This document shows, piece after piece, positions 16,253 through 56,660 of a stretch of 64,000 nt of DNA. How positions within the stretch are numbered: position 1 is the stretch's first letter; every line of letters begins with the position of its first letter. The stretch comes from Candidatus Cloacimonadota bacterium. GTDB taxonomy: Bacteria; Cloacimonadota; Cloacimonadia; Cloacimonadales; Cloacimonadaceae. The notes under the pieces are model-generated. The model saw only the letters and a program-made list of their open reading frames with translations, was not told where the DNA came from and did no database searches. The stretch is taken from positions 31 to 64,030 of the forward strand of contig JAHDQK010000042.1 in assembly GCA_018433885.1 (NCBI GenBank), written 5' to 3'. A program made the position numbers and the translations under genes.

Positions 16253-17920
16253 ATGCATTTCCTGCCGATTAACAAACAAGATCTCAACGCTCGAAACTGG
16301 AGCGAACTGGACATCATCCTCATCAATGGCGATGCCTATATCGATCACCCTTCTTTCGGGGCTGCCATAATCGCCAGAAGCCTTGAAGCTGCCGGTTTCC
16401 GGGTTGGCATCATTTCCCAACCGGACTGGAGAAAGGATGAGGACTTCCTCGCCTTGGGCAAGCCGCGTCTCTTCTTCGGCATTACTTCCGGAAACATGGA
16501 TTCCATGGTGAATCACTACACCGCCCAACGCCGCTTGCGTTCAGACGATGCCTATAGCCCCGGCGGACAAAGCGGCAGACGCCCAGACCGCGCCGTAATG
16601 ATCTACGCCAACATCCTGCAAAGATTATTTAAGGGAGTTCCCATCGTAATCGGGGGCATCGAAGCCTCCCTGAGACGCCTCGCTCATTACGACTATTGGC
16701 AGGATAAAATCCGCAACAGCATCCTTTCCGACAGCAAAGCGGAGCTTTTGATCTATGGCATGGCAGAACGGACGATCGTTGACCTGGCGCGCAGATTGGA
16801 TAATGGCGAAAGCATCCTGGAGATCAAAGATCTTCCCTCCAGTGTCTGCTATGTATCCCAGCCCGGAAAACCTCTTCTCCCCAACGCCGAGGATTGCCGG
16901 GATAAAGCTACATTTCACCGGATGAACCGGATGTTTTACGAACTCTTTCCCACCCAAGCCCTTTACCAGATAAACGGTGGCAGATGGCTAAAGCACAATC
17001 CGCCCGCGCCTCCCCTATCTTGCGAGGAACTGGATAACATATTCGCTCTACCGTTTATGAACGCCCCACATCCGGTTTACCAGGGTCAAACCTTTCCCGC
17101 CTGGGAACAAATCAAGAATAGCATCACCTCCCATCGCGGTTGTTATGGCGGTTGTAATTTCTGCGCGATAGCGGTGCATCAAGGACGCAAGATACAATCC
17201 CGCAGTGCATATTCTATCGTGAAGGAAGCACGGCGCATCAAAGGATCCATCAGTGATGTGGGCGGACCCAGCGCAAACATGTATCAAAGCACCTGCAAAC
17301 TGGGATTTCCGGATAGCTGCCCGCGTCGCTCTTGTGCGTTTCCTCAGATTTGCCCCAATCTGCAATTGGATCACGATGCCCAGATCCGCTTGTTGGACGA
17401 GATTTCCCGCCTTCCCAACGTGAAGCACGTATTCGTAGCCAGCGGAATTCGCCACGACTTGGCACTCGGCAATAAACGCTACATCAGCGAAATCGCCAGA
17501 AAGTACACTGGCGGCAGGCTAAAACTGGCTCCGGAACACAGTTCTCCAAAAGTCCTGCGGCTGATGGGCAAGCCTCCCATAGAGCGGTTTGAAGCCTTTT
17601 CCAAAGAGTACTTCGAAGAAGTGCGAAAAGCAGGCATCAAACGCCAGATCATCCCCTACATCATCATCGGCCATCCGGGAACCACCATGGAAGATGCCAT
17701 TGCCCTCAAGCACTGGCTGGATGCCCACAATATCCAGGTGGAGCAAGTTCAGGAATTTACCCCCACTCCCATGACGATAAGTACCTGCATGTATTACACA
17801 GGCTTGGATTTTGAAACCGGTGAACCCATCCACATTCCATCCCCGGGGGAGATTCGTAAACAAAAAGAGCTGATCGTGAAAACCACTGCCGGCAAGCCCA
17901 AGCGTAAGCACCGACAATAG
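16253..17920 (+). CDS. ygiQ: YgiQ-family radical SAM protein (UPF0313)
   Basis: The 555-aa ORF has the characteristic N-terminus (LDIILINGDAYIDHPSFGAAIIARSLEAAGFRVGIISQPDW) and the radical SAM cluster CYGGCNFC. Confidence 0.85.
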   Translation: MHFLPINKQDLNARNWSELDIILINGDAYIDHPSFGAAIIARSLEAAGFRVGIISQPDWRKDEDFLALGKPRLFFGITSGNMDSMVNHYTAQRRLRSDDAYSPGGQSGRRPDRAVMIYANILQRLFKGVPIVIGGIEASLRRLAHYDYWQDKIRNSILSDSKAELLIYGMAERTIVDLARRLDNGESILEIKDLPSSVCYVSQPGKPLLPNAEDCRDKATFHRMNRMFYELFPTQALYQINGGRWLKHNPPAPPLSCEELDNIFALPFMNAPHPVYQGQTFPAWEQIKNSITSHRGCYGGCNFCAIAVHQGRKIQSRSAYSIVKEARRIKGSISDVGGPSANMYQSTCKLGFPDSCPRRSCAFPQICPNLQLDHDAQIRLLDEISRLPNVKHVFVASGIRHDLALGNKRYISEIARKYTGGRLKLAPEHSSPKVLRLMGKPPIERFEAFSKEYFEEVRKAGIKRQIIPYIIIGHPGTTMEDAIALKHWLDAHNIQVEQVQEFTPTPMTISTCMYYTGLDFETGEPIHIPSPGEIRKQKELIVKTTAGKPKRKHRQ

Positions 17921-18105
17921 AAAACTACCCCTTGATGACCAAGCCCATAACCCGGGCAACATAGCACAACCCGGCTGCATATCCGCTACTTACACCCATT
18001 TCTCAAAGGAGTTGCCAAGCCGTCTTGTAGCAGTGGATACTGCACATTCACCCCATGGCGACCTGTTCGGGCAATGGGGATGATGATGGGCTTGTTCCTG
18101 CGATC

Positions 18106-18146
18106 AACGTCAATCTGAAGTTCCATTATTCGGGGATTTTGAATCC
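18106..18146 (+). repeat. Left 41-nt direct repeat bracketing structured element copy 1
   Basis: AACGTCAATCTGAAGTTCCATTATTCGGGGATTTTGAATCC. By hand alignment, about 33 of 41 positions are identical to 18361-18401, which lies 255 nt away. Confidence 0.7.
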
Positions 18147-18205
18147 TCTGACTCAGAACCCGGGATCCATTTTTACAAACAATGTAATAAAAGGCACATT
18201 CACAA

Positions 18206-18353
18206 ATATCGGATGTATTGGTTTTTGCACATGCAATACCATTGCCTTGTGTCGCCCGCGAGGGGCTCTTAACTTTTTATACCGGACTACGAGGGGCTTC
18301 GCTACGCTAAGCACCCTCGCTATGAACGGTGTCGCCCCTGGTGGGGCTTTTTT
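18206..18353 (+). repeat. Structured GC-hairpin repeat element, copy 1 (candidate small RNA or MITE-like element)
   Basis: Modules in order: ATATCGG..TATT; GTGTCGCCC-GCGA-GGGGCT hairpin; ACGAGGGGCT..CGCTACGC..GCACCCTCGCTAT long hairpin; GGTGTCGCCCC-TGGT-GGGGC hairpin plus T6. The same modules occur in the same order on the opposite strand at 40627-40739. Confidence 0.7.
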
Positions 18354-18360
18354 ATATGTT

Positions 18361-18401
18361 CGCGTTAATCTGAAGTTCCATCATTCGGAGGTTCGGAATC
18401 C
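18361..18401 (+). repeat. Right 41-nt direct repeat bracketing structured element copy 1
   Basis: CGCGTTAATCTGAAGTTCCATCATTCGGAGGTTCGGAATCC. See 18106-18146. Confidence 0.7.
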
Positions 18402-18467
18402 GCATGTATGGCTTGGGTTATGCTTCCTGCTTGACAGAATCATCTCTTCTACAATCCTTGCACTCAT

Positions 18468-18543
18468 ACAGGGGTGCTGAAGATAACTTCGGCTGAGATC
18501 ATACCCTTCGAACCTGATCCGGATAATACCGGCGCCAAGGAAG
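18468..18543 (+). promoter_or_regulatory. TPP (THI-box) riboswitch
   Basis: ACAGGGGTGCTGAAGATAACTTCGGCTGAGATCATACCCTTCGAACCTGATCCGGATAATACCGGCGCCAAGGAAG matches the conserved THI-element blocks (GGGGTGC, GCTGAGA, ACCC, AACCTGATCyGGwTAATACCrGCG, AGGAAG). It lies 78 nt upstream of thi4. Confidence 0.9.
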
Positions 18544-18621
18544 TAGAAACCCACAAACCTCCTGCTCCATTTCGAGGATTGTCTCAAAAAACCCCTGATT
18601 TTAAAAAGATAAGGGGAAGTC

Positions 18622-37446: not shown

Positions 37447-37498
37447 CGATTTTCACGTTCGAAAATGCTAAACAATCCGGTAATGAGAGGTGTGGATC

Positions 37499-40465
37499 AT
37501 GAAGATGGAAGAATTGAATTACTATTACAATAAATTCAAGTTTGGAGAGGATATATTTCATCAACTGATGCAGAATCGAGTGCGGGAAATCCTTTTGGTA
37601 TCTACATTTTACGATGCTTTTATCTTCGAACAGGATGGCAGGCTTTCGGAACAAATATTTGGGGAGTATCGCCAGCTAAATCTATCCACAGCCCCCAGAA
37701 TCACTTCCGTTCCCACCGGCGAAGAAGCCCTACAGAAGCTTAAAGAACACAATTTCGACCTCGTGATCACCATGATGCGCATCGGGGAAATGGGACCTTT
37801 TGAGCTGGCAAGGAAAGTAAAAGAACAACGCCCGGGGATTACTGTTTTACTGCTTCTTAATGTAGCTTCCGATTACACAATCTGGGAAAACCACCTTGAA
37901 GATAGAGTCTACATCGACAATGTATTTTTGTGGAATGGAGATACCAAGCTGTTCTTGGCGATGGTCAAAAACGTGGAAGACAACATGAACGCCGAGTTCG
38001 ATACCAGCCACGGTCTAGTAAGGGTGATCCTCCTTGTAGAAGATTCTGTGCATTATTACTCCATGTTTCTACCCTCGTTGTATTCTGTTATCATGAAGCA
38101 AACTCAAAGGCTCATCGAAGAAGAGGTGAGTGACATCAACAAGCACCTGCGCATGAGGATTCGCCCCAAAGTCTTGATGGCTCACGATTTTGAGGAAGCA
38201 ATCCAGCTCTATGATAAATATAAGGATTTCATGCTATGCGTGATCTCGGACGTTCGCTACAAGGTAAATGGCGAGGTGGATCCTGAAGCAGGAATCAAAT
38301 TGATCCGGCATATCATGTCCAAAAACAGCGACCTGCCCATGATCCTGCAATCCTCGGAAGGGCATAACGAAGAAGTAGCGCGGAAACTGGGGGTGCATTT
38401 TTTGAACAAGAACTCCAAGCGTCTCTTCAAAGACCTGCGAGAATACATGGTCTATAGTCTCGGTTTCGGCAATTTCATCTTCCGCAGCCCGGAGGGAGAT
38501 ATCTTGGATCAAGCTGCCAACATTGCGGATTTTGAAGAGAAAATCCTTAAGATTCCCGTGGATTCACTGGAGTTTCATAGCCGCTTCAACCACTTTTCGA
38601 ACTGGTTAATCGCCCACGGAGAAGTTCAGATAGCAAAAAAGATCCGCCCGATGAAGATCGAAGATTTTGAATCCCCAGACGAGTTGAGAAGGTTTTTGTA
38701 CCATGTCTTCCGTACCGTGCGCATCGAAAAAAACCGGGGGAAGATCATCAATTTTGATGCGGTTTCACTTTCCGAAATGAACCAGATCATCAGACTCACG
38801 GAAGGTTCCCTGGGCGGAAAGGGCAGAGGCCTGGCTTTTCTGAACGCTCTGCTTTGTACCATGGAATATGAAAAGAAGTTCGAAAACACCGCCATCTCGC
38901 TACCCTCCACCGCCATCATCGGAACTAACGAGTTTGATCTGTTTTTGGAAATCAACGGAATCACGGAAAAAGTACAGGGTTTGAGCGATACAGAGATCGA
39001 CGCTCTGTTCATCGAGGGCGAGCTCTCGGATTCCCTCATCTCGCGCTTGGAGATATATCTGGATCATGTGAATTACCCAATTGCGGTGCGCTCTTCCAGC
39101 CTGCTGGAGGATTCTCAGGCGCAACCTCTGGCGGGAGTTTACCGCACCTTCATGCTACCCAATAACCACCCAGAGCGGGATCATCGTCTTCGCCAATTGA
39201 TGAACGCGATCAAGCTGGTCTTTGCCAGCGTATTTCTATCCGATGCCAGGAACTTCTTGGATTCGCTTAACTTCAAGGCGGAAGAAGAAAAGATGGCGGT
39301 TATTATCCAAGAAATCGTCGGCTGCCTCAAAGGGGATCATTATTACTATCCCCATATCTCCGGAGTGGCACAAAGTTACAATTTCTATCCCACATCCCAC
39401 ATGGAGCACGCGGATGGCATCGCAAACATCGCCCTCGGCTTGGGCAAAGCCGTAGTGGAAGGTAAACTCAACTATCGCTTCTGTCCCAAATATCCGGATA
39501 TCGATATCCTCCCCCCGGAAGAAATGATGCGCAATTCGCAAAAAGACTTCTATGGCTTAAACCTTGCCAACAACGATTTTGACCTTACCAAAGGAGAAGA
39601 AATCACACTCTCTAAACTCAACCTTGCCGATGCCGACAAACACGGCAGCTTGCGCTATCTGGCTTCGATCTGGGATTATGAGAATTTCCGGCTGACGGAC
39701 AACCTACAGGAACGCGGGATGAAGGTTCTCACCTTTTCCAGCATCCTGAAATACAATTACTTCCCCTTGGCGAAGATCGTGGGAGAACTCCTCGAAATGG
39801 GCGAAATCGCTTTGGGTATTCCGGTCGAGATCGAATTTGCCGTGAATCTTGAACACGAGAAAAGCCACGCCAAGAAACCCACCTTCTACATCCTCCAGAT
39901 CCGCCCCCTCTCCGTGAGCAAGGATGCCTACCATATCGATGCCGCCAGACTGGATAAAAATGACCTGCTGATGTACACTGAACACGGCATGGGCAACGGA
40001 GTAATCGATGAACTAAGAGACGTTATCTATCTTGATCCTAAGCGTTTTGACAAGACTATGACCCCACAAATGCAAGAGGAAATTCATAGATTCAACTTAA
40101 AATTTGAAAACCAGAACAAGCACTACATCCTTATCGGACCAGGAAGATGGGGCTCCCGAGATAAATTCTTGGGCATCCCGGTTCGCTGGCCCCAGATCAA
40201 TCGCGCTAAAGTAATATTGGAAACCGGATTGCCGGATTTTATCGTGGAATCCAGCCAGGGAACGCATTTCTTCCACAACTTGGTGGCTATGAACGTGGGC
40301 TACTTCACAATACCCTATACTTCCGCCACAGACTTCGTGGATATGGATTGGCTGATTCGGCAACCCGCCGTTGAGCGGGGTGATTTCTTTGTGCACGTGG
40401 AGTTTGAACGGCCATTGATGGTAAGAATGGATGGCAAAACCGGGCTCGCAGTAATCCATAAATAA
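37499..40465 (+). CDS. Pseudo-receiver, then receiver, then PEP/pyruvate-binding (PPDK_N-type ATP-grasp) domain protein
   Basis: The first REC-like domain lacks the acidic pocket (LLVSTFYD) and has M in place of the phosphoacceptor (FDLVITMMRIGEMGP). The second REC has LLVEDS, LCVISDVRY, ILQSSE and FLNK. The C-terminal half has PPDK_N motifs (GGKGRGLAFL, IAVRSSSLLEDSQAQPLAGVYRTF). No phosphohistidine swivel or PEP-utiliser domain is visible. Confidence 0.75.
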   Translation: MKMEELNYYYNKFKFGEDIFHQLMQNRVREILLVSTFYDAFIFEQDGRLSEQIFGEYRQLNLSTAPRITSVPTGEEALQKLKEHNFDLVITMMRIGEMGPFELARKVKEQRPGITVLLLLNVASDYTIWENHLEDRVYIDNVFLWNGDTKLFLAMVKNVEDNMNAEFDTSHGLVRVILLVEDSVHYYSMFLPSLYSVIMKQTQRLIEEEVSDINKHLRMRIRPKVLMAHDFEEAIQLYDKYKDFMLCVISDVRYKVNGEVDPEAGIKLIRHIMSKNSDLPMILQSSEGHNEEVARKLGVHFLNKNSKRLFKDLREYMVYSLGFGNFIFRSPEGDILDQAANIADFEEKILKIPVDSLEFHSRFNHFSNWLIAHGEVQIAKKIRPMKIEDFESPDELRRFLYHVFRTVRIEKNRGKIINFDAVSLSEMNQIIRLTEGSLGGKGRGLAFLNALLCTMEYEKKFENTAISLPSTAIIGTNEFDLFLEINGITEKVQGLSDTEIDALFIEGELSDSLISRLEIYLDHVNYPIAVRSSSLLEDSQAQPLAGVYRTFMLPNNHPERDHRLRQLMNAIKLVFASVFLSDARNFLDSLNFKAEEEKMAVIIQEIVGCLKGDHYYYPHISGVAQSYNFYPTSHMEHADGIANIALGLGKAVVEGKLNYRFCPKYPDIDILPPEEMMRNSQKDFYGLNLANNDFDLTKGEEITLSKLNLADADKHGSLRYLASIWDYENFRLTDNLQERGMKVLTFSSILKYNYFPLAKIVGELLEMGEIALGIPVEIEFAVNLEHEKSHAKKPTFYILQIRPLSVSKDAYHIDAARLDKNDLLMYTEHGMGNGVIDELRDVIYLDPKRFDKTMTPQMQEEIHRFNLKFENQNKHYILIGPGRWGSRDKFLGIPVRWPQINRAKVILETGLPDFIVESSQGTHFFHNLVAMNVGYFTIPYTSATDFVDMDWLIRQPAVERGDFFVHVEFERPLMVRMDGKTGLAVIHK

Positions 40466-40894: not shown

Positions 40895-41905
40895 GTGAAA
40901 AAAATTGTTGCTTTGTTACTTGTTTTGATGGCAACCTGCCTCATTGCCAATCCCATCGATCCGTCCGTGATCCAACAGCTATATTTCGATGGCAACGATG
41001 ATCTGATAATCCAGTTTGGAGATCAGGCAGCATGGTTGGCTGGATCCGAGGTAAGCATCCACTGTGGAGGCCAGAGTTTGGATTACCTTTTGCAGGAAGG
41101 GGAATATCCCTTGGAGATCAACCTCAGTGAATTACTCCCGGAAATTTCCGTAAACCGGGATTCCGGTAGCCTTACTCTGGAGACGGATATCATATATTTA
41201 GCAGAATTCGTCAATTGGGGCAACACAGAGGATTGCGATGTTTCTCCTCTCCAGAATTCTGAATCCATCTACCAATATCTGCAGGTAGTCCATGGTGAAT
41301 GGGAAGATTACACGTTAAAAACATGGGCAAAAAGTCCAGACCCCGCCATGGTGGAATATTACCATTGTGATGCGGGTTTTGAGCTTAGTATCGGGGTACG
41401 CAATCTGCAGCATGAACCGCTGGCGAACATACCAGTTTATTATCAGGATTTTTCCTCATTGATCGGCTACACAGATCAAAATGGCTCGCTGAATGTGTGT
41501 CTCCCCGCGCGCCGCACCAGGATCCGGGTCTATCATCCCGAAAGCCCCGCAACCCCGGTGTATGATCAAAGCTTCATGGGCGAACCTTATGGACTGAGTA
41601 TGCATACCGTGGTGATGGATTACACCGGGATAGATGATCCGCAAAACATCCTTGCCCCTGCCGCTTTGAACCTAAGCCCCAGCCTGATCCACCCTGGTGA
41701 AAGCATCTTGGTGGAGTATGGCAAGGAAAGCCCCAATGTATTTACCCTGGAGCTTTATGACATAAAGGGAAGATACATTAGCAGTTACGACTATCGGGAA
41801 GCCATGCGATTCACGCCCCCCGCTCTGGGGAGTGGTATGTATTTTCTGCGCCTCAAGGACGGCGAGAGAGCCTTGGACACCAAGAAGTTCATCCTGCTGA
41901 AGTAA
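40895..41905 (+). CDS. Secreted protein with T9SS C-terminal sorting domain
   Basis: The ORF has a GTG start with an AAAGGAGA RBS and a signal peptide (MKKIVALLLVLMATCLIA). The C-terminus is LNLSPSLIHPGESILVEY...FTLELYDIKGRYISS...GSGMYFLRLKDGERALDTKKFILLK (T9SS type A tail). Confidence 0.75.
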   Translation: MKKIVALLLVLMATCLIANPIDPSVIQQLYFDGNDDLIIQFGDQAAWLAGSEVSIHCGGQSLDYLLQEGEYPLEINLSELLPEISVNRDSGSLTLETDIIYLAEFVNWGNTEDCDVSPLQNSESIYQYLQVVHGEWEDYTLKTWAKSPDPAMVEYYHCDAGFELSIGVRNLQHEPLANIPVYYQDFSSLIGYTDQNGSLNVCLPARRTRIRVYHPESPATPVYDQSFMGEPYGLSMHTVVMDYTGIDDPQNILAPAALNLSPSLIHPGESILVEYGKESPNVFTLELYDIKGRYISSYDYREAMRFTPPALGSGMYFLRLKDGERALDTKKFILLK

Positions 41906-41933: not shown

Positions 41934-42093
41934 TGGGGATCTTGATTATAAGCCTTGCCGCCTCCCCATCCCCATCGCCCGATAAAGCTGCTCAGCCGCT
42001 TTGATGCAGTGGGCACTGCATCGACACGGCTTCGCGACTGCTTCGATGGATGGGGATGGACATTGCTTACCTTTTACACAATTGGGAGAATGC

Positions 42094-55713: not shown

Positions 55714-56123
55714 ATATCTACTCCCTAAGCATCAAAGAATATAACTAGGAAGCAGATTTTATCTTTCTTGAAAATGGTCAAGCAATAAATTACAGCCCCA
55801 GTGTAAAAACAACTAAAATTCCTCTGACTTAGTTGCGCGCCCTAGCTTCCCCATTGATCAAAGCATTCGCCATGGGGCGTTTCAGCAATCTTCACTGCTT
55901 AATCACACCATGGAGATTGCTTGGATGAATGGGCTGGATACAAAGATCATGACTGTTTGTAAATGCCAAGCGAATTTCTTTTGCTGAACATCGATGGCAT
56001 CGAAGAGAGCGAAAGCCAGCTACTTTCCGAGTTTACTGAAGGATAACGCCGCTCCCACAGATGCTTACTGAGATTATGGGGCAATTGCGCGATATTTGAA
56101 CAATATAGATAGCTTCTTGCCTA

Positions 56124-56660
56124 TCACTTAGTGGAAAACACCTCCGCACTAAACCTGAATAGTTCGGATTCCGGATCCCTTAGAGCACCGGCAGGGAGTC
56201 CCGCTTTATTTTCCAGATGCTTCAGGAATTGTGGGACATCCCAGTTCCACTCCACCGCAACCTGGGGCAAGAGCAATCCGCTCCCTTCAGGGTGGTCAAC
56301 ATACAGTCCGTCGCGTCCGATCTGAATCTCCGATGGATCATCTACCGGGATCATCTCACTAAGGATGGATATCTCCACCTGCAGATCCGGTAATTCGGAT
56401 TTGGAGACAGGCGGAAATCTGGGATCCCGGAACGCGGCTGCCACAGCCATCTCTTTCACGGATTCCACTATTGATTTGTAAGGCAAGATGTAGCCGATGC
56501 AGCCCCGCAGAGCTCCATCGATGTGCAGGCTTACAAATATCCCCCGTTTCACCTGATAAGCCTCATCTTCAGGCGCGGGGCAGGGAGAGCCGACCAAATT
56601 GTTTCGAATCACTGCCATCGCGTAATCCAGAAGACATTGTTTTTGTGTGGAATTTAACAT
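56124..56660 (-). CDS. AMMECR1-domain protein (AmmeMemoRadiSam system protein A-like)
   Basis: The 178-aa ORF has GIFVSLHIDGALRGCIGYI, DPRFPPV and LLPQVA, all typical of AMMECR1. Confidence 0.85.
   Translation of the reverse strand: MLNSTQKQCLLDYAMAVIRNNLVGSPCPAPEDEAYQVKRGIFVSLHIDGALRGCIGYILPYKSIVESVKEMAVAAAFRDPRFPPVSKSELPDLQVEISILSEMIPVDDPSEIQIGRDGLYVDHPEGSGLLLPQVAVEWNWDVPQFLKHLENKAGLPAGALRDPESELFRFSAEVFSTK

Follow-up and report, generated by a model that had tools for sequence, protein, structure and literature searches.

The stretch at positions 18106 to 18401 of a 64,000-nucleotide window (the whole stretch of DNA that was analyzed, C37:31-64030) from a Cloacimonadota genome is very probably one copy of a non-autonomous DNA repeat family of this phylum. 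The family resembles repetitive extragenic palindromes (REPs) and bacterial interspersed mosaic elements (BIMEs), and in related genomes it is linked to a Y1 single-strand transposase. Its unit begins with a small, TGTC-footed GC hairpin (S) and a spacer of ~20 to 25 nt, continues with a longer, imperfect hairpin (H2) and a CTA(T/A) tag, and closes with a second S; for this lineage, the repeat-unit pattern is CGAGGGGCT(T/C)CGCTACGCTACGCACCCTCG. The element is not of a new kind: it is a local variant of the well-known selfish repeats that are paired with REP-associated tyrosine transposases (RAYTs). The original prediction, which was made from the sequence of the window, had called it undescribed; the word holds for the family but not for the kind of element, since REPs and BIMEs with Y1 transposases are well known. 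In the literature collection that we searched, no paper brought REP or RAYT together with Cloacimonadota, Cloacimonetes, or Cloacimonas.

The element recurs far beyond chance in its own genome (2.42 Mb, 91 contigs, 47.8% G+C): a 65-nt core covering H2 and S2, the downstream S, gave 41 BLAST matches, and an iterated nhmmer search gave 58, ~25 of which are near full length. With an H2-S profile we recognized 34 clear units; altogether, the family occupies about 45 to 58 intergenic places. Thus, it is not confined to the two copies that the original prediction had described, one here and an inverted second copy (copy 2) farther along the window; that prediction had proposed counting copies across the genome. 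Every copy is intergenic, as judged on a crude gene map, and many lie between convergent genes; several are found at contig ends, which suggests that the repeats break the assembly. Among the copies of this genome the hairpins are kept, while the linkers between them are not, and a few units form inverted pairs (on contigs C62, C54, C14, and C79). Within the genus, 12 of 24 genomes carry the element, and the family contains one further genus that has it; elsewhere in the order, 16 genomes of other families gave no match. An H2 pattern scan of 185,579 species genomes (one per species) matched almost only Cloacimonadota metagenome-assembled genomes (MAGs), with a few isolated matches in unrelated genomes. 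One 3.9-kb contig with three units (CAZANH010000245.1) was binned as "Eubacteriales"; it is probably mis-binned, because it shares its co-assembly (SRP067234) with an element-rich Cloacimonadota MAG.

At the first of its two loci in the window, presence of the element is specific to this lineage. The order ygiQ, promoter, TPP (thiamine pyrophosphate) riboswitch, thi4 is kept in four relatives, in which ygiQ and the riboswitch are ~70 to 140 nt apart, versus ~540 nt here. The mosaic of repeat modules that includes the element (positions 17992 to 18401) is missing from the ygiQ-thi4 spacer of all four, and the five-genome alignment resumes only at the TTGACA...TACAAT promoter. As for copy 2, stretches of ±1.5 kb were fetched from 11 relatives around the orthologue of its left-hand neighbor gene; none contained an element match, so this copy also appears to be specific to this lineage. 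The comparison with empty sites proposed in the original prediction pointed the same way at both loci: in the stretches compared, relatives lack the element.

The link to a transposase emerged when we collected the Y1 transposases (PF01797) of the genus and ran the element profile over their flanks. The Y1 protein of related genomes has 146 to 152 amino acids and is IS200-like, with an HUH motif. In G004, the closest relative by YgiQ identity (86 to 87%), a 146-amino-acid Y1 gene has a reverse-complement S-H2-S unit on one side and an S-H2-S unit on the other, and its H2 type equals that of the genome studied here. The layout is the same in G005, where the H2 stem is CCCGGGG/CCCCGGG, and in G012, G007, and G024, which have further H2 stem types. 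Across the phylum, 59 of 232 Cloacimonadota genomes encode a Y1 homologue at E ≤ 1e-25; most of the 59 have one or two, and a few have three or four. Of the 31 phylum loci that were fetched, 26 carry units on both flanks of the Y1 gene when read by eye. A strict script, which rejects bulged stems and does not compensate for contig ends or masked sequence, found units on both sides at 16 loci, on one side at nine, and on neither at six, that is, on at least one side at 25 of the 31. Wherever both flanks of these loci were readable, units are present on both, in inverted orientation. Such inverted two-sided flanking, by which a REPtron is recognized, was found in relatives at loci L156 (the G004 locus), L159 (G005), L167, L168, L043, and most of L206 to L235; the genome studied here has no cognate gene.

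Another genome of the family, G043, is closed (2.2 Mb); its only Y1 gene is accompanied by at least 94 matches to its unit round the chromosome, often in head-to-tail arrays with a period of ~100 nt; across relatives, arrays are likewise head-to-tail, with periods of ~77 to 100 nt. This Y1 gene of G043 (C1:682935-684052) has an in-frame TAA and is nevertheless followed by at least seven head-to-tail units. We considered whether such arrays could be clustered regularly interspaced short palindromic repeat (CRISPR) arrays and rejected this: in arrays such as L108 and L073 (77-nt period), what separates one H2 copy from the next is itself repetitive, consisting of S hairpins and linkers.

Stem co-variation between genomes ties the long hairpin to the enzyme clade. 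The loci for this comparison were picked by protein homology only and anchored on a conserved loop motif, TTYCGCTNCGCTNCA, which avoids circularity. The seven positions on each side of the loop motif pair in 87% of cells; sliding one arm by one or two positions lowers this to 45% and 26%, and pairing ends at position 8 (3 of 36). Two or three kinds of Watson-Crick pair were seen at each of three stem positions, G·T pairs occupy only 7 of 252 cells, and CTA follows H2 in 28 of 36 cases. The 7-bp stem is thus variable, with at least 10 fully compensated H2 stem types across genomes, while the loop edges, the 3′ CTA(T/A) tag, and the TGTC-tagged small hairpin are constant. There is also a short H2 variant, reduced to the stem with a TTCACA-like loop. 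In units of the CGAGGGG type, one inner pair is either C-G or T-A (50 versus 65, with 6 exceptions), and the mismatches T·C and C·T are kept in >92% of units.

Proteins of this clade (~148 amino acids, with the motifs DHVH, WQ, and Y---Q--HH) align with ISDra2 TnpA. The HUH motif DHVH is conserved, and so is a tyrosine that aligns with the position occupied by F in entry 2xo6 and by Y in entry 2xm3, which we take to be the catalytic tyrosine; by sequence, the transposase looks intact. Three clade proteins scored 63.7, 55.5, and 52.5 bits with NF033573 (IS200/IS605 family transposase; cutoff, 55) and 21 to 24 bits with the RAYT model NF047646 (cutoff, 80). By its motif signature, the clade fits TnpA-Y1 subclass 1.2 as described by Quentin, Siguier, Chandler, and Fichant (2018, PMC6006769): that subclass has ~148 amino acids, DH[IV]H, WQ, and Y---Q--HH, is low-copy and close to IS200 TnpA, occurs mostly in Cyanobacteria and Bacteroidetes, and was listed without an associated REP-like structure. 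At somewhat below an even chance, we propose that this subclass, described as IS200-like, low-copy, and structure-free, is a REPtron-type enzyme that is paired throughout Cloacimonadota with a two-hairpin unit amplified into head-to-tail arrays. If so, these natural enzyme-hairpin pairs with compensated stems would be a ready-made series for learning how such enzymes read DNA.

At loci L151 to L179 of the same genus, there are at least four further Y1 clades with Y---Q--HH, each with different flank hairpins (for example, GTCCCATCGGGACGACAG, GGCGGCTGCTTTAGCTGCCG, and GCGACGGGTTTAAACCCGGCG). Public metagenome contigs from soil, sediment, and other sources (L248 to L327) encode Y1 proteins with a WQ.GY/Q.EHH signature, and there the upstream and downstream flanks match each other in inverted orientation at 48 of 59 testable loci, often over 45 to 66 nt with 88 to 98% identity; direct matches were seen at 24 of 59. 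The subclass may therefore be repeat-flanked well beyond Cloacimonadota.

As for how the repeats spread, IS608/ISDra2 TnpA and E. coli TnpA-REP serve as mechanistic analogues (PMC3333891, PMC2817692, PMC6006769). By this analogy, we infer that the Y1 enzyme recognizes the hairpins in single-stranded DNA and cuts and rejoins beside them, at or near the conserved tag; units would be copied or moved into intergenic DNA, and head-to-tail arrays would be built. Folded as DNA, the bottom strand, in which (T/A)TAG precedes the hairpin, is better than the top strand by 1.5 to 1.7 kcal/mol in three consensus types, a weak hint as to which strand might be active. The minimum-energy RNA fold of positions 18249 to 18353 pairs S1, the upstream S, with S2 around H2, whereas the DNA fold keeps the hairpins local; this long-range pairing, which is gone in the DNA fold, probably arises because the two hairpins are self-complementary and nearly identical.

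Several observations weigh against assigning the stretch to such a transposase-linked repeat family. This assembly contains no cognate Y1 gene or remnant in tblastn searches with four clade members (best E = 0.19). Nor did any locus in our scan of public metagenomes look like the partner Y1 of this genome: the scan gave only relatives at 33 to 44% identity, with one locus (L269) carrying the Cloacimonadota hairpin type. The copies are also old, with a mean pairwise identity of 59%, nearest neighbors usually 65 to 79% identical, and a single pair at 93%. Alignment with the four relatives revealed neither a target-site duplication nor exact ends of the insertion, because their spacers are too diverged and share no sequence until the thi4 promoter, and the analysis gave no direct sign of transposition. 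IS200/IS605-type elements are often orientation-biased. The units here show no such bias (13 versus 14 relative to GC skew, 16 versus 12 relative to the majority gene strand), although this is a weak test, with a small sample in a genome fragmented into 91 contigs. The unit lacks the GT[AG]G head of REPs; instead, its long hairpin has CTA(T/A) on the 3′ side or, when the opposite strand is read, (T/A)TAG on the 5′ side. Unlike in BIMEs, units do not alternate but follow one another head-to-tail in one orientation (S1, H2, S2). Finally, the link between enzyme and hairpin rests on adjacency and co-variation.

Since the assembly lacks a cognate Y1 gene and its copies are diverged, these copies are most likely an orphan, decaying population, or else the bin has lost its Y1 gene, an easy loss in a MAG when repeats lie on both sides of a gene. 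PF01797 matches only two genes in this genome, C9:185-1108(−) and C88:56208-56759(−), both RAYT-like, with NF047646 scores of 74 and 67 bits (below cutoff) and NH.H and YI.NNP motifs. We rejected them as partners of the element, because their flanks carry unrelated REPs, ATAGGCGGTTCGGCGACCGCCTGTACA and GGGCGAACCGCAGTTCGCCCCTAC. The C88 locus has a five-unit tandem REP array with a period of ~31 nt at ~56085 to 56210, and C9 is a 1.1-kb contig bounded by repeats.

Other explanations must be weighed against the transposase-linked repeat. The original prediction had left open whether the stretch was a hairpin-dependent mobile element or a structured RNA, and our results strengthen the former, which is multi-copy, absent from relatives' spacers, and found flanking a Y1 gene. 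A structured RNA family, whether of small RNAs or of cis-acting 3′ untranslated region elements that use S2 and the U-tract as their own terminator, is now very unlikely. The plus strand folds more stably as RNA than shuffled sequences do (−63.6 kcal/mol; z = −3.4), S2 with the six T's after it (T6) fits a terminator pattern, and stems are kept by compensatory change; most full copies in this genome keep the T-run after S2. However, the T-run is not conserved in relatives, the inter-hairpin linkers are not conserved, and the compensatory changes are almost purely Watson-Crick, with few G·T pairs; the opposite strand folds slightly better as DNA. Orientation speaks against an RNA too: within co-directional gene pairs, units lie in sense five times and in antisense four times, and they adjoin the transposase gene in both orientations. 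A search of Rfam 15, a check that the original prediction had proposed, left the element without a family: over the window, only the TPP riboswitch and tRNAs reached gathering score, and positions 17900 to 18480 gave no match to the element even at E ≤ 1. For this locus, the repeat reading takes away a candidate new structured RNA and accounts for a ygiQ-thi4 spacer ~400 nt longer than that of relatives.

It is also unlikely, if somewhat less so, that the units are terminators or mRNA-stabilizing hairpins selected by the host and spread by recombination or gene conversion, with the adjacency to Y1 genes being secondary. Copies do lie 3′ of genes, often convergent ones; the first copy in the window follows ygiQ in sense, precedes the thi4 promoter, and has a terminator-like end, and REPs elsewhere have been reported to affect termination and mRNA stability (PMC3733652). 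Such a role fits poorly with an S2 stem of only 5 bp and with unbiased orientation, and relatives without the unit at the same two loci indicate that it is dispensable to the host at these places. Without the enzyme, it would be hard to account for so tight a link, inverted and two-sided across the phylum, to a single Y1 clade with matching stem types. Least probable of all is a classical miniature inverted-repeat transposable element derived from a DDE-type insertion sequence, in which the 41-nt direct repeats that the original prediction saw around the core would be duplicated target or terminal sequences. A multi-copy, intergenic unit of ~255 nt between direct repeats would suit such an element, but a repeat search found no terminal inverted repeats, and the associated gene is a Y1 and not a DDE transposase. 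Moreover, the 41-nt repeat is a dispersed module that occurs beside S2 elsewhere and sometimes alone, and module content varies from copy to copy.

A repeat family linked to a Y1 transposase can be compared with several known systems. Like the REP/REPtron-RAYT systems of E. coli (yafM with BIME-2), Pseudomonas, and Stenotrophomonas (Nunvar 2010, PMC2817692; Ton-Hoang 2012, PMC3333891; Bertels and Rainey 2011, PMC3116915), the family is made of short, extragenic, multi-copy, imperfect palindromes that are often clustered (H2, 30 nt; S, 14 to 19 nt). As in those systems, a low-copy Y1/HUH gene lies between its own inverted repeats, hairpin sequence differs with the enzyme clade while palindromy is kept by compensation, and repeat populations also occur in genomes without the enzyme. 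It differs in that the protein is not a class-2 RAYT, to judge from its much lower score with the RAYT model than with the IS200/IS605 model (21 to 24 versus 52 to 64 bits) and from Y---Q--HH in place of Y...NP, and in that the unit has two hairpin kinds, S and H2, of which S bears the TGTC foot. Members of TnpA-Y1 subclass 1.2 in Cloacimonadota, unlike those described, are regularly flanked by dispersed hairpin units. IS200/IS605 elements such as IS608 and ISDra2 share a homologous transposase, imperfect hairpins beside the gene, and an expected single-strand mechanism; however, their end hairpins are on the same strand and whole elements are multi-copy, whereas here the flanks are inverted, a genome has one or two copies of the gene, and multiple copies are found of the hairpin units only. 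The unpaired TGTC foot of S (TGAC in some relatives) recalls CGTC-tagged REPs, in which CGTC is often TGTC and which occur in FCB-group phyla, reportedly without a dedicated transposase (Di Nocera et al. 2013, PMC3733652). Those repeats have 8- to 9-bp stems starting with A-T pairs and a CCA tail, whereas S has a 4- to 5-bp pure GC stem and always accompanies H2. This system stands apart in its unit of two hairpins, its head-to-tail arrays, and a partner that resembles subclass 1.2.

A phylum-wide hairpin-repeat system is thus added for the little-studied Cloacimonadota, with many cognate enzyme-hairpin pairs for the study of DNA recognition by single-strand transposases. Repeats of this kind appear to break MAG assemblies and could serve as strain markers.

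The hairpins, T6 tract, repeats, and inverted second copy of the original prediction were all present in our sequence and alignment checks, as was the placement between ygiQ and the thiamine riboswitch, where both neighbors matched their models (Table 1). According to the copy-number profile, all of positions 17992 to 18401 consists of repeat modules with sharp outer edges, in the order R0, M4, M5, S1, linker, H2, S2, M4; coverage falls to 0 at 18402, so the mosaic ends at 18401. H2 is its most conserved module, with the CTAT tag directly 3′ of it (H2 plus tag, 18290 to 18323). The S1 pattern GTGTCGCCC-N5-GGGCT occurs 36 times in the genome.

The M4 copies were the brackets of the original prediction; the repeat search aligned them as direct repeats of 39 nt (18108 to 18146 and 18363 to 18401; 85% identity; 255-nt spacing). 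As limits of the element they do not hold up: M4 is neither a target duplication nor an element end, because it follows S2 at about a dozen other copies (on contigs C8, C10, C12, C21, C66, C82, C84, and C88), where it is simply the next module of the mosaic, and it sometimes occurs alone. The M4-M5 segment aligns with C21:21416-21550 (74% over 138 nt). The ATATCGG box within M5, TATCGGATGTATTGGTT at 18207 to 18223, is part of a low-copy module, TATCGGATGGATTGGGT, with 20 matches at ≤3 mismatches versus 6 in a reversed-genome control; the 17-nt repeats around copy 2 are more copies of this box. Copy 2 differs from the first copy by a 5-nt deletion in the H2 apex and in its loops; it lies between a REC/PPDK_N-like gene (37490 to 40465) and a gene for a 336-amino-acid protein (40895 to 41905).

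Table 1. Modules of the repeat mosaic, its second copy, and neighboring features in the window
Feature	Position	Strand	Evidence or copies
R0, 90-nt long-palindrome repeat abutting the element; separate, more abundant family, part of the same mosaic	17992-18085		20-37 BLAST matches over exactly that stretch
M4 module, upstream copy (direct repeat 1 of the original prediction)	18106-18148	+	
M5 module, includes ATATCGG box	18149-18225	+	3-7 genome copies
S1, small TGTC-tagged GC hairpin, GTGTCGCCC-GCGAG-GGGCT (stem GCCC/GGGC, loop GCGAG)	18249-18267	+	~23 copies cover the stretch
H2, long imperfect hairpin, CGAGGGGCTTCGCTACGCTAAGCACCCTCG (CGAGGGG...CCCTCG, bulged A, two conserved mismatches)	18290-18319	+	DNA/RNA fold; ~34 copies
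S2, small TGTC-tagged GC hairpin, GGTGTCGCCCC-TGGT-GGGGC (stem GCCCC/GGGGC)	18328-18347	+	~29 copies
M4 module, downstream copy (direct repeat 2 of the original prediction)	18355-18401	+	~12-13 copies
Copy 2, S1-H2-S2-T7 plus M4-like tail	~40730-40603	−	Module order as copy 1; nhmmer 96.3 bits
YgiQ gene	16253-17920		TIGR03904, 735 bits
TPP riboswitch	18460-18559	+	RF00059, 62 bits
thi4 promoter plus TPP riboswitch, unique sequence starting just past the mosaic	18432-18559	+	Promoter TTGACAGAAT...TACAAT

R0 was found by nhmmer at 118 distinct places in the genome, each matched on both strands; matching of R0 copies on both strands by one profile fits a palindrome in each copy. It lies within 500 nt of 23 of the 34 S-H2-S units. 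BLAST with a single copy as the query gave no R0 outside this genome, and no partner gene of R0 was identified. Its consensus resembles CCCCATTGCC-CGAAGCAGTCGCCATGCCGTCTTGATGCAGTG...CACTGCATCAAGACGGCATGGCGACTGCTTCG-GGCAATGGGG, although copies are only ~70% alike, and a further copy is present in the window at 41968 to 42057.

Downstream of the mosaic, the gene 3′ of the TPP riboswitch encodes a Thi4-type thiazole synthase (TIGR00292). The promoter just 5′ of the riboswitch, TTGACAGAAT-N-TACAAT (18432 to 18459), is kept across five genomes of the genus, while the sequence upstream of it is not. A pattern scan marked S2 (18334 to 18347) and the TTTTTT directly after it (T6, 18348 to 18353) as terminator-like, in the sense of ygiQ and 3′ of it, albeit with a stem of only 5 bp; located 430 nt 3′ of ygiQ, this hairpin and T-run may plausibly help to end ygiQ transcription before the thi4 promoter.

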